Source of the DNA: Octopus vulgaris
Taxonomy: Eukaryota
DNA length: 64,000 nucleotides
Reading direction: 5' to 3'
Assembly: GCA_951406725.2 (NCBI GenBank)
Contig: OX597824.1
Location: forward strand, 41,788,001-41,852,000
The first letter of the stretch is position 1. Every line of letters begins with the position of its first letter. Under the pieces are notes generated by a model. That model saw nothing but the letters and a program-made list of their open reading frames with translations, searched no databases and was not told the origin of the DNA. Below, in pieces: positions 6,675 through 49,976 of this stretch. Made by a program: the position numbers and the translations under genes.

Positions 6675-7049
6675 GTTTATATATTTGTTGTGCAAGATTT
6701 TTTATGTGAAGTCGTGTGTTGAAACAGATATTATTATATATCGGAATGGTCATTTTGCCAGTTTAGCCAATAAAAACACACGCACTATATATTTGGTGTT
6801 ACTTTGCTTCAGTGTTATTTATTTTTTACATTAATCTTAATCTGACGGTTAGTAAGGAGAGACACAAATAAGAAAGAAGAAAACAAAGGACCACTGATGC
6901 GTTCACAGGAGTGTGACGAAAGAACTCTGGCCGAAATAAGATTAAGATTAATGTAGAAAATAAATAACACTGAAGCAAAGTAACACCAAATATATAGTGC
7001 GTGTGTTTTTATTGGCTAAACTGGCAAAATGACCATTCCGAAATATAAC
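6673..7049. mobile_element. PLE-type pseudo-LTR with about 105 bp inverted arms, inserted in (TA)n
   Basis: 6735-6841 is the reverse complement of 6941-7049; HHR in the spacer; ORF start MTIPIYNNICFNTRLHIKNLAQQ on minus from 6753. Confidence 0.8.
6888..6932 (+). ncRNA. Type I hammerhead motif (C3-G8), slightly mutated
   Basis: cca CTGATGC G TTCACA ggag TGTGAC GAA AGAACT C tgg. Confidence 0.7.
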
Positions 7050-7129
<80 letters not shown>

Positions 7130-11180: not shown

Positions 11181-11204
11181 TCTAACTACAAAAATAATAA
11201 TAAT

Positions 11205-11620
11205 CTTTTACTTGTTTCAGTTATCCCACTGTGGCCATGCTGGGGCACCACTTTGAAAAAAATTTAGTCAAACGAATCAACCCCAGTCCTTATTTTAATT
11301 TTAATGCCTGGTACTTATTCTATCGGTCTATTTTTGCCTAACTGCTAAGCTACAGTGACGTAAATACACCAACACCGTTTGCCAAGCAGAAGTAGGAGAC
11401 AAACAGAGACACAAAGATACGCATACAAACCATGTATATATATATATATATATACGCATGACAGGTTTTTTTCAGTTTTCGTTTACCAGGTCCACTCACA
11501 AGGCTTTGGTCGGCCCTAGGTTATAGCAGAAGACACTTGCCCAAGGTGTCAGACACACAGTGGGATTGAACCCGGAAACGTGTGATTGGGAATCAAACGT
11601 CGTACCACAAAGCCACACCA
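11205..11620 (-). mobile_element. SINE family A
   Basis: Reverse complement of the 1855-2265 type sequence. Confidence 0.8.
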
Positions 11621-13790: not shown

Positions 13791-14230
13791 AAAGAGTCAC
13801 AACTGGTAGTCGGAGAATTTCTACAACTTCTCCAGTTGCAATTTCTGGCCACCTAATTCCCCCGATTGTAATTCTAAGGATTACTTATGTGTAAGGTCCG
13901 TTTTATAAAGACACCATCTGCTATGCCTGCAGCAGAATCAAGGTTTTATCTAGTAGCCTGTATCAAGGAACTGTTCGGAGATCGTTCCATGGACTTAGTG
14001 AGAAACGCATGACCAGGTTCCTGAGACGCTTGGAGGTGTGGTGGAATCTGAAGGTGTCTTCTTAAAGGAAACTATCGTCTCTTAACCATAATCTAGTTAA
14101 TATTTTTCGTTATGTACGTAGGTTTATGTCAGTTGAAAGAGAGTAGGGCTCCAAATATCTCTTCGAGTATATTGTTTTTCCTTAAGCTAAAGCTCTGATA
14201 TTCGATAGATACAGTCCTAAAAAGGAAATG

Positions 14231-14700
<470 letters not shown>

Positions 14701-14829
14701 TAAGCAAATACTTCGCTGTCTGCCATGTAGTTGATATCGTGGTTATTGCTGTCGATGTTGTTTAGCCCTAGACCAGTGATAGCTGGGTTGATCTAGGACC
14801 TCAAACATACATAAATACAAATAAAAGTA

Positions 14830-16582: not shown

Positions 16583-16880
16583 ACTTTGGCTGTGTGATAA
16601 AAAGCTCGTTTTCCAACCACATGATTTCGGGTTCTGTCCCACTGCGGGAGACCTGGATCAACTGTCTTCCACGATATCCCCAGGCTTGTGAGTGGATTTA
16701 GTATACGGAAACTGAAAGAAGCCCATCGTATGGCCGTATTGTAAGAAGCTTGCTTCCCAACCACACGGTTTCGGGTTCAGTCGCACTGCGAGGTACCTTC
16801 GGCAAGTGTCTTCTACTATAGCCTCTGTCCGACAAAAGCCTTGTGGGTGTATTTGGTAGAGGAAAACTGAAAGAAGCCCG

Positions 16881-16972
<92 letters not shown>

Positions 16973-17097
16973 ATCTCTCCGCCATCTGACTCTGCTGTGC
17001 TTACGTTCCCGTAACCTAGCAGTTCGGGAAATGAAACCGACAGAATAAGTCCTGGAGTCGATTTGTTCGACTAAAGGCAGTGCTCCACTCAGGCCAC
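16583..17097 (+). mobile_element. SINE family A with tandemly duplicated head
   Basis: Head at about 16583-16729 ending 'ggaaactgaaagaagccc' is followed directly by a second head at about 16730. Confidence 0.75.
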
Positions 17098-24624: not shown

Positions 24625-24949
24625 AAAGAAGGAAAAGAAAATGGAGATAGGGAAGTTGATAATTGTTTATTATTAACTGCAAATTAATAATCATCCCTTA
24701 CAGCTGTTTCAGTTAACACTCAGTAAATATTAAATTTATATGACCTGAGGATAATATCTTCAGAGGGAAAACAATATACACTTGGATGGTTTATATGTGT
24801 TTATGGATTCATTATAGCAGGCTGAATGATACGGTTTATAAACCGTATCAGTCTGCTATAATGAATTCATAAACACATATAAAACATCCGAGGGTTTATT
24901 TTTCCCTCTGAAGATATTATCCTCAGGTCATATAAATTTAATATTTACT
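24625..24949. mobile_element. PLE pseudo-LTR palindrome next to (TA)n
   Basis: Spacer-less palindrome 24722-24949 centred at 24838/24839. Confidence 0.8.
24695..24767 (-). ncRNA. Type I hammerhead ribozyme
   Basis: ccct CTGAAGA ...ctcag...ctgag... GAA ACAGCTGT A aggg. Confidence 0.8.
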
Positions 24950-27095: not shown

Positions 27096-27136
<41 letters not shown>

Positions 27137-27139
<3 letters not shown>

Positions 27140-27365
27140 ATTTCCTGTTGGTCAGTTCTAATTTTGGAGGTGTACTTGTATAGCAAGTGACCTGATCTGA
27201 GATCGTGTGCTGGAACGAAAATAATTGAAGCATGGAAGGTGCTTATAAACCATTTAAGAAACACACAAAAACCGTTAGATTCACTTCAACATTTAAATTC
27301 AATTTGTCAAAATATTTTCGTCGCTTTGAGACCGCGACCTGTTCACTGACAAAATTCCGTGCTGC
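27137..27365 (-). mobile_element. PLE-type pseudo-LTR remnant (HHR plus ORF start) at (TA)n
   Basis: ATG at 27253 gives MVYKHLPCFNYFRSSTRSQIRSLAIQV; abuts (TA)n. Confidence 0.7.
27303..27353 (-). ncRNA. Minimal hammerhead variant (G3-C8)
   Basis: tttgtca GTGAACA G GTCGC ggtctcaaa GCGAC GAA AATATT T tgacaaa. Confidence 0.8.
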
Positions 27366-27624
27366 ATCACTGTTTGAGCTCTAATTTTCTTTGTTGTTAA
27401 TTTAATGATATTCTATTGAGTTCTTCACATTAAAAATAAAAATAAAATGTCTAATGTTGCTAGTTGACCAAATCAAAACGACAAAGCAATAGAAGAGTGC
27501 AGTTCTTAACAGTAATGTAGCCAGGTCGATGAAGCTCAAATTTGCAATCCTCTTTCTAAGCGTTCTTCGTCGTCATGTCACCTTGACGAGTAATACATTA
27601 CATTAACACTATGCAAGGTATATA

Positions 27625-45662: not shown

Positions 45663-46077
45663 AGGCGTAGGAGTGGCTGTGTGGTAAGTAGTTTGCTTAC
45701 CAACCACATGGTTCCGGGTTCAGTCCCACTGCGTGGCACTTTGGGCAAGTGTCTTCTACTATAGCCTCGGGCCGACCAAAGCCTTGTGAGTGGATTTGGT
45801 AGACGGAAACTGAAAGAAGCCCGTCGTATATATATAAATATATATATGTTTGTGTGTGTATATGTTTGTGTCTGTGTTTGTCACCCCAACATCGCTTGGC
45901 AACCGATGCTTGTGTGTTTACGTCCCGGTAACTTAGCGGTTCGGCAAAAGAGACCAATAGAATAAGTACTAGGCTTACAAAGAATAAGTCCTGGGGTCGA
46001 TTTGCTCGACTAAAGGCAGTGGTCCAGCATGGCCACAGTCAAATAATTGAAACAATTAAAAGAGTGAAAGAGTAAAG
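45663..46077 (+). mobile_element. SINE family A, young full-length copy
   Basis: Near-identical to 1855-2265. Confidence 0.92.
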
Positions 46078-49769: not shown

Positions 49770-49976
49770 ATCCTGTAAATAATAATAATGCTATTTATAT
49801 AAACTTAAATCTTATAGCGATCTCCGTGCAATGACTAAGAAAATAAGCCCTCGACGGAAAAAAGGCTTTCCTATCGGCTTATATGCCCGTTTATTAGACT
49901 ATTTTCCTTAGTCATTGCACAGTGGTCGCTATAAACTTTACCCTCATATAAATGCCATTATTATTATTTGCAGGAT
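49770..49976. repeat. Imperfect inverted repeat between (TA)n tracts (PLE-type)
   Basis: 49770-49845 pairs with 49900-49976. Confidence 0.7.

Follow-up and report, generated by a model that had tools for sequence, protein, structure and literature searches.

The 64,000-nucleotide stretch of Octopus vulgaris DNA analysed here (the window) carries on its minus strand, from 27353 to 27303 as read from its letters, a hammerhead-type motif in which core positions 3 and 8 are G and C. With a probability of about 0.65, we consider this motif to be a minimal type I hammerhead with a fixed compensatory G3-C8 pair, carried by a Penelope-like element of recent activity in its terminal repeat, and likely to cleave itself slowly after U17, for which a second copy or the protein of the element is predicted to be needed. 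In hammerheads, the general acid is held in place by the 3:8 pair, and it was by swapping this pair that the active structure was classically proven in the laboratory. A preliminary description had recognised the hammerhead motif and its natural swap, both of which are supported; its arguments from the UUU triplet and from the perfection of the helices are not, and the Penelope-like terminal repeat around the motif had been overlooked.

The 7-bp helix I, 5-bp helix II, palindromic AAUAUU and core GUGAACA-G given in that description are all present in the minus strand. Helix I, called from sequence and fold, is formed by a 5' strand at 27353-27347 and a 3' strand at 27309-27303. It is followed by the core G3 U4 G5 A6 A7 C8 A9 (27346-27340), where G3 (27346) and C8 (27341) replace C3 and G8, and by an extra G (27339) between A9 and G10.1, an insertion that is usual in Penelope-type minimal hammerheads (Cervera 2014). 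Here and below, what is quoted from Cervera and de la Pena 2014 (PMC4209133), Perreault 2011 (PMC3088659), Craig 2021 (PMC8557442), Frangieh 2024 (PMC11167929) and Li 2026 (preprint 10.64898/2026.07.22.740005) relates to parts of these papers. Helix II (27338-27334 with 27324-27320, span 27320-27338) starts with the G10.1-C11.1 pair and closes a 9-nt loop, the part of the motif that varies most between subfamilies. The GAAA box (G12 A13 A14 A15.1, 27319-27316) runs into the palindromic helix III AAUAUU (27316-27311), whose pairing is possible only between two copies, and into U17 (27310). By hammerhead numbering, the predicted cleavage bond is U17|U1.1 (27310|27309) in a UUU triplet. Helices I and II enclose the core and both ends lie in helix I, which is the type I topology. 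The GAAA box, the NUH site, G10.1-C11.1 and the extra nucleotide after A9 all agree with the description of Penelope-type minimal type I motifs in Cervera 2014. Taken literally, the consensus core (C3 U G A N G8 A) is not matched owing to G3 and C8, making the motif a variant rather than a consensus member, and the Watson-Crick pairing of positions 3 and 8 is present as G-C.

When the 51-mer was folded alone, both helices formed with an energy of -13.8 kcal/mol (z -2.5), and 2 of 200 shuffles were equally good; this signal was lost when flanks were added (z -0.7 and +0.3). Within the ~204-nt element, pair probabilities were 0.93-1.0 for helices I and II, with 0.31 and 0.56 for the two outer pairs of helix I. 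A hammerhead descriptor accepting any Watson-Crick 3:8 pair found 27303-27353 as its sole match in the 64-kb window, and on dinucleotide shuffles it matched in 1/60 at 7+5 bp and in 4/60 at 5+4 bp. Rfam scans returned no hammerhead family match, either at the gathering score or, in 27100-27500, at E<=10. These Rfam scans and the loss of the fold signal with flanks would suit a chance look-alike, in which two hairpin arms in an AT-rich repeat merely resemble a hammerhead, as would the chance occurrence of the same short pattern in 12 metagenome contigs; all 12 are GC-rich (58-72%) and have no helix I, and they were set aside as chance matches. Such a look-alike is nevertheless highly improbable and already largely refuted, since sister families carry a canonical C3-G8 core at the same place, and the motif occupies the usual position of a Penelope hammerhead.

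The motif lies in a solo, 5'-truncated pLTR copy of a Penelope-like retroelement (27166..27368, minus strand, ~203-205 bp), as delimited by the ends common to the 30 best genomic matches, and this copy matches the pLTR-ORF junction of locus L322 with 87% identity over 209 nt. A leader at 27354..27368 (minus strand) separates helix I from the putative RNA 5' end, a likely transcription start at ~27368-27369 placed from the 5' ends of copies. The first ~31 codons of the element ORF follow in frame at 27161..27253 (minus strand), the frame being that of the ORF N-terminus in L322, and within them lies an optional ~60-nt 'tail' on the same strand between two preferred 3' ends, ~27217-27224 and 27158-27166. 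Next to the 3' end of the element is a (TA)n microsatellite (27098..27136, no strand), the usual target of the G3-C8 family. The flanks at 27369-27390 and 27145-27165 resemble each other in a 9-nt match and beyond it, and may be the remains of a target-site duplication of ~20 bp.

Counting of genomic copies, as proposed in the preliminary description, was carried out across the whole 2.8-Gb genome and gave 6,323 exact copies of the 20-mer covering helix I and the core and 8,381 of a downstream 24-mer, both reversed controls giving 0. Longer copies (552 matches to an upstream 21-mer) pass through a (CATA)n tract into an ORF. On the 5' side of many copies there is a truncated copy in inverted orientation, and many copies end at (TA)n. 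The G3-C8 motif was found 837-1235 bp after the stop codon in 27 of the 30 best endonuclease loci and was absent within 1.5 kb in the other three, while in L322 the motif, with ~140 nt behind it, leads straight into the ORF N-terminus. The motif and the ORF are thus linked on both sides, past the stop codon and ahead of the start codon. An earlier assignment to a MITE or Helentron, based on a short terminal inverted match and a 3' hairpin, was dropped once this link had been found.

The ORF of locus L307 is stop-free over 1,025 codons and contains the DKSG and YVDD motifs, a CX3CxxC linker and a GIY-YIG domain with CCHH. The latter matches PF01541 at 25.4 bits (cut-off 22.6). We assign a reverse transcriptase to this putative protein with moderate confidence, because Pfam RVT_1 finds no match in the partner ORF and the call rests on DKSG, YVDD and 26% identity (E 1e-6) to another Penelope-type enzyme. 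Between the VVSLYPSI and GGAIG motifs, ~100 extra residues (~490-590 of L307) are present, which we take to recall the insertion-in-fingers domain. The partner family is young, 45 of 406 ORF pairs being identical over 414 nt (median identity 97.6%). Partial pLTR tandems, inverted 5'-truncated copies and an optional tail, traits of EN+ Penelope-like elements, are all present, and the layout, as judged from sequence, is the one in which pLTRs are arranged in Penelope-like elements (Craig 2021; Frangieh 2024).

Two other very young Penelope-type families (L151-L153 and L165), with 775-aa and 753-aa frames, many near-identical copies and 4,271-bp tandems, were rejected as the parent as the termini of both lack homology to it. 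Neither the descriptor nor inspection by eye revealed a canonical type I hammerhead in them; the 3' region of L165 contains a single CUGAAGA half-core, and a second frame of ~450 codons lies upstream in one of the two families. The L084/L101 ORFs were rejected as neighbours by chance, and a triplet at C2:171.24 Mb, considered as an element tandem, is a local duplication with no ORF. Elsewhere in the window, decayed fragments of a Penelope-type reverse transcriptase and endonuclease, unrelated to the G3-C8 family, lie at 4832-4571 and 3310-3107 (minus strand). A ~400-bp interspersed repeat is present in more than 10 window copies with 70-92% identity (1855-2257, 11204-11619, 14230-14703, 16731-17087, 45663-46064 and others), and long imperfect palindromes at 6728-7054, 24722-24949 and 49770-49976 resemble the inverted structures of Penelope insertions.

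Among 73 copies that were chosen solely by sequence downstream of the cut site and reach position 3, 70 carry G3-C8 and the other three show single changes. The natural swap put forward in the preliminary description is thus conserved across copies and fixed in the family. The only frequent helix I variant, at 27307 in the 3' strand, keeps a U-G pairing; it occurs in 10 of the 73 copies and makes up 15-26% of the depth in four public runs. In the core, no alternative letter reached 5% in these runs, whose four organism labels may stand for close relatives sharing the family by descent. Among the public runs on record, none of RNA is listed as containing the motif, a result that speaks neither for nor against its expression. 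It had also been argued that the perfect helices of the window copy speak against decay. At each of its 51 positions this copy simply has the letter of the family majority, and the drift of genomic copies is neutral; its helices mirror the master sequence, and the evidence for constraint is the comparison of subfamilies.

That comparison started from 294 non-G3 variants of an 18-mer genome-wide, mostly point mutants, the trail of which led to older relatives. A search with positions 3 and 8 free and a loop II of 3-7 nt gave 152 matches. Counted by hand in the first 100 of these listed, the 3:8 states were G-C 39, C-G 26, U-G 12, U-A 3, G-U 2 and unpaired 18, so that 3:8 was paired in 82 against 44 expected under independence; in the same first 100, the unpaired states C-C (3) and G-G (1) were rare. 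Positions 15.2:16.2, which the search patterns left free, also covary (A-U in the G-C families, G-C in the U-G family), and position 17 is mostly C in the C3-G8 family and U in the G-C and U-G families. The conservation of U/UGA, A9 and GAAA in the old families arises by construction, because the search patterns fixed those positions. A U3-G8 subfamily (e.g. L097, L112, L115-L117) is an old sister with a consistent U3-G8 wobble and a CUU triplet, for which a Saccoglossus row in Cervera 2014 Fig. S3 is a precedent. A homologous endonuclease (E 1.5e-11) lies 363 bp upstream of one C3-G8 copy.

A tree was built from the sequence after the GAAA box alone, using the 82 rows whose non-repeat tail was 90 nt or longer, and the bootstrap had not settled. 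A branch with 100/99 support parts the C-G/U-G families (24 rows, none of them G-C) from the G-C families. The long-branch rows L047, L113 and L119 fall on the G-C side without being G-C, and that side holds old copies, with end branches of 0.2-1.0 changes per site, together with very young ones. With sister families carrying C3-G8 or U3-G8 and C3-G8 taken as ancestral because it is the hammerhead consensus, the G3-C8 swap is compensatory as far as these sequences go. It probably arose about once and persisted through old and recent waves of amplification; the covariation accordingly stands for about one G-C origin and not for many independent events.

A literature search returned G3-C8 hammerheads as engineered mutants only and no natural one; outside this search were Przybilski and Hammann 2007 and Lünse 2017, the latter reportedly a catalogue of Penelope hammerhead variants that may already hold it. 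Martick and Scott 2006 is said to be the forerunner of the C3G/G8C double mutant of the anole Poseidon (PAc) hammerhead discussed below. Natural compensatory change at 3:8 is in itself known from U3-A8 cores (Perreault 2011; Cervera 2014). These differ from the ancestral pair by two transitions, whereas the pair described here requires two transversions and places a purine at 3 and a pyrimidine at 8.

The closest natural counterparts are the metazoan Penelope pLTR hammerheads of Cervera 2014, which are likewise type I, with an additional nucleotide that separates position 9 from 10.1, a G10.1-C11.1 pair, a short palindromic helix III and U17, and which are located in pLTRs, mostly as solo copies. 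The preliminary description had called the UUU triplet unusual, but by our count 24 of the 56 Penelope-type motifs shown in Fig. S3 of Cervera 2014 have U17, and the Crassostrea gigas motif has UUU itself. Of the alignment comparisons proposed there, that with Rfam gave no match; all 56 motifs in Fig. S3 have C3 or U3 (C3-G8, U3-A8 and one U3-G8) and none has G3-C8, which the descriptor used in Cervera 2014 could not find. The extra nucleotide is G here compared with H in the consensus of Cervera 2014 (G in the Nasonia row), and helix I is longer here (7 bp).

The same swap was engineered in a Penelope-type hammerhead, PAc (Frangieh 2024), in which the junction of pLTR and ORF is likewise the site of the hammerhead, and the ORF likewise contains a tail bounded by two reverse-transcription start sites. 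In the octopus family the swap occurs naturally and is fixed across thousands of copies; the ORF starts ~56 nt after the cut site instead of inside helix II, and the tail has ~60 nt compared with 30-40 nt in PAc. For the protein, the order of reverse transcriptase, CX3CxxC linker and GIY-YIG domain with CCHH is that of EN+ Penelope-like elements with a zinc-finger linker, of the Neptune or Nematis clade (Craig 2021), which share partial tandems, inverted 5'-truncated copies, a tail and (TA)n targets with the present family. Unlike these, the octopus element has a long insertion within the reverse transcriptase and a ~1-kb 3' region with the (CATA)n tract before the hammerhead, and the clade likeness rests on the CX3CxxC linker.

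Metazoan non-LTR retrozymes (Li 2026) are similar in being short pLTR-derived hammerhead units; these are non-coding tandems with a hammerhead in each unit, whereas the window copy is solo and its family has an autonomous parent of its own. One retrozyme-like array, L334 (G000:C28:4994870-4997926), consists of at least eight head-to-tail hammerhead-bearing pLTR units with ~170-190-bp spacing and would supply dimers in one transcript; L333 has two head-to-tail pLTR units. Six copies on contig C1 (L354, L357, L395, L397, L402 and L421) share one identical inverted-repeat junction with G3-G5 deleted in one arm, which suggests that this palindromic chimera spread as a unit.

The genomic 5' ends of copies provide an indirect test of cleavage, since copies made from a cut template should start at U1.1. 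The survey of copy ends covered the first 36 Mb of contig C1, where 99 of 100 listed places, with identical contexts merged, yielded 94 distinct matches. Only one of the 94 begins at the cut site and four begin within 3 nt of it, where ~4 are expected from even truncation. By comparison, 45 of the 94 5' ends fall in a 10-nt window ~16 nt upstream of helix I, 17 of them at one base. Immediately outside these 17 ends, 14 copies have a G in place of the C or T of the element; the outer G is present in 7/7 such copies without an inverted copy (with one flank common to two of them), and the bases beyond it vary. In LINE-1 and SVA, an untemplated 5' G is taken as a sign of cap copying (PMC4859970), and the D. 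virilis Penelope has an internal promoter in the corresponding region. The 3' ends lie at two sites ~60 nt apart (34 and 53 of the 94 copies), as expected from two internal reverse-transcription starts. Because the 5' ends cluster upstream of helix I with an extra G and not at the cut site, the templates of insertion were probably capped and uncut for most genomic copies. Alternatively, the 5' pile-up may mark a splice acceptor instead of a transcription start, as its site coincides with a branch-point-like, pyrimidine-rich AG.

In the reading that we prefer, the pLTR promoter would start a capped RNA ~16 nt upstream of helix I, reverse transcription would begin internally, ~90 or ~145 nt past the predicted cut site, and the reverse transcriptase would read through the uncut motif up to the cap. 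Such products would be the thousands of ~145-205-bp solo copies, including that of the window. The swap would preserve the 3:8 tertiary pair, and any cleavage would act on a minority of the RNA or on a different RNA pool. As a G3-C8 variant was more active with G17 than with C17 (given as 'data not shown' in PMC3884650), G3 may mispair with C17, a mispair that U17 would prevent.

A copy distribution that ignores the cut site would also be left by a retired ribozyme, that is, a hammerhead descendant which no longer cuts in vivo and is kept as a protein-bound fold or through overlap with an internal promoter or 5' UTR, weak cleavage favouring the family since uncut RNA is the template. Dimer predictions fit this alternative. 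The helix III palindrome is present, but the predicted hammerhead dimer (-25.4 kcal/mol) is only marginally better than two monomers (-24.8 kcal/mol), helix III closure costs 1.8 kcal/mol in the nearest-neighbour model, and a different dimer is more stable (-30.6 kcal/mol). In addition, hammerhead-dead mutants insert normally in vitro, where the hammerhead is dispensable (PMC11167929), and Penelope-like clades in which canonical hammerheads are lacking proliferate well (Craig 2021). However, the scarcity of cut-site ends does not prove the ribozyme dead, and uncut templates are the rule for the canonical anole element too (PMC11167929). A double transversion restoring exactly the 3:8 pair, with C-C and G-G rare, is moreover what selection for active-site geometry predicts. 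We hold retirement to be the less likely explanation, although one to be taken seriously.

At the other extreme, the swap could be cheap in this scaffold and the ribozyme fully active, tandem transcripts being cut efficiently to unit length and the cut RNA remaining unused for insertion. The stability of the swap from old copies to copies identical over 414 nt, the removal by U17 of the G3-C17 trap implied by PMC3884650 and the existence of tandem unit arrays (L334) are in line with this possibility. It is improbable in view of published G3-C8 mutants, which are merely partly active, and of metazoan Penelope hammerheads, which are slow even as dimers (PMC4209133). In the anole element, C3G/G8C partly rescues cleavage, and that hammerhead cleaves only with protein (PMC11167929), similar to the slow and assisted cleavage that we favour for the octopus motif.

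The advance is limited in that one base pair is swapped in a known motif and a known setting, with an effect already predicted from mutants. A natural, fixed G3-C8 family would nonetheless widen the known core alphabet of hammerheads. Searches based on CUGANGA miss whole families, here one of more than 6,000 copies that is invisible to Rfam. We speculate, as a reading less likely than not, that the long-lived natural G3-C8 pair may represent a throttled or retired ribozyme in which, with U17 as the enabling change, cutting speed was traded for a capped, uncut template, the family thereby becoming one of the most copied elements of the genome. Sister families with C3-G8, U3-G8 and G3-C8, together with an apparently intact young ORF and a record of uncut, capped templates, form a ready test system. 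If the throttled or retired reading were true, it could be tested directly in this clade whether cleavage is needed by Penelope hammerheads at all.
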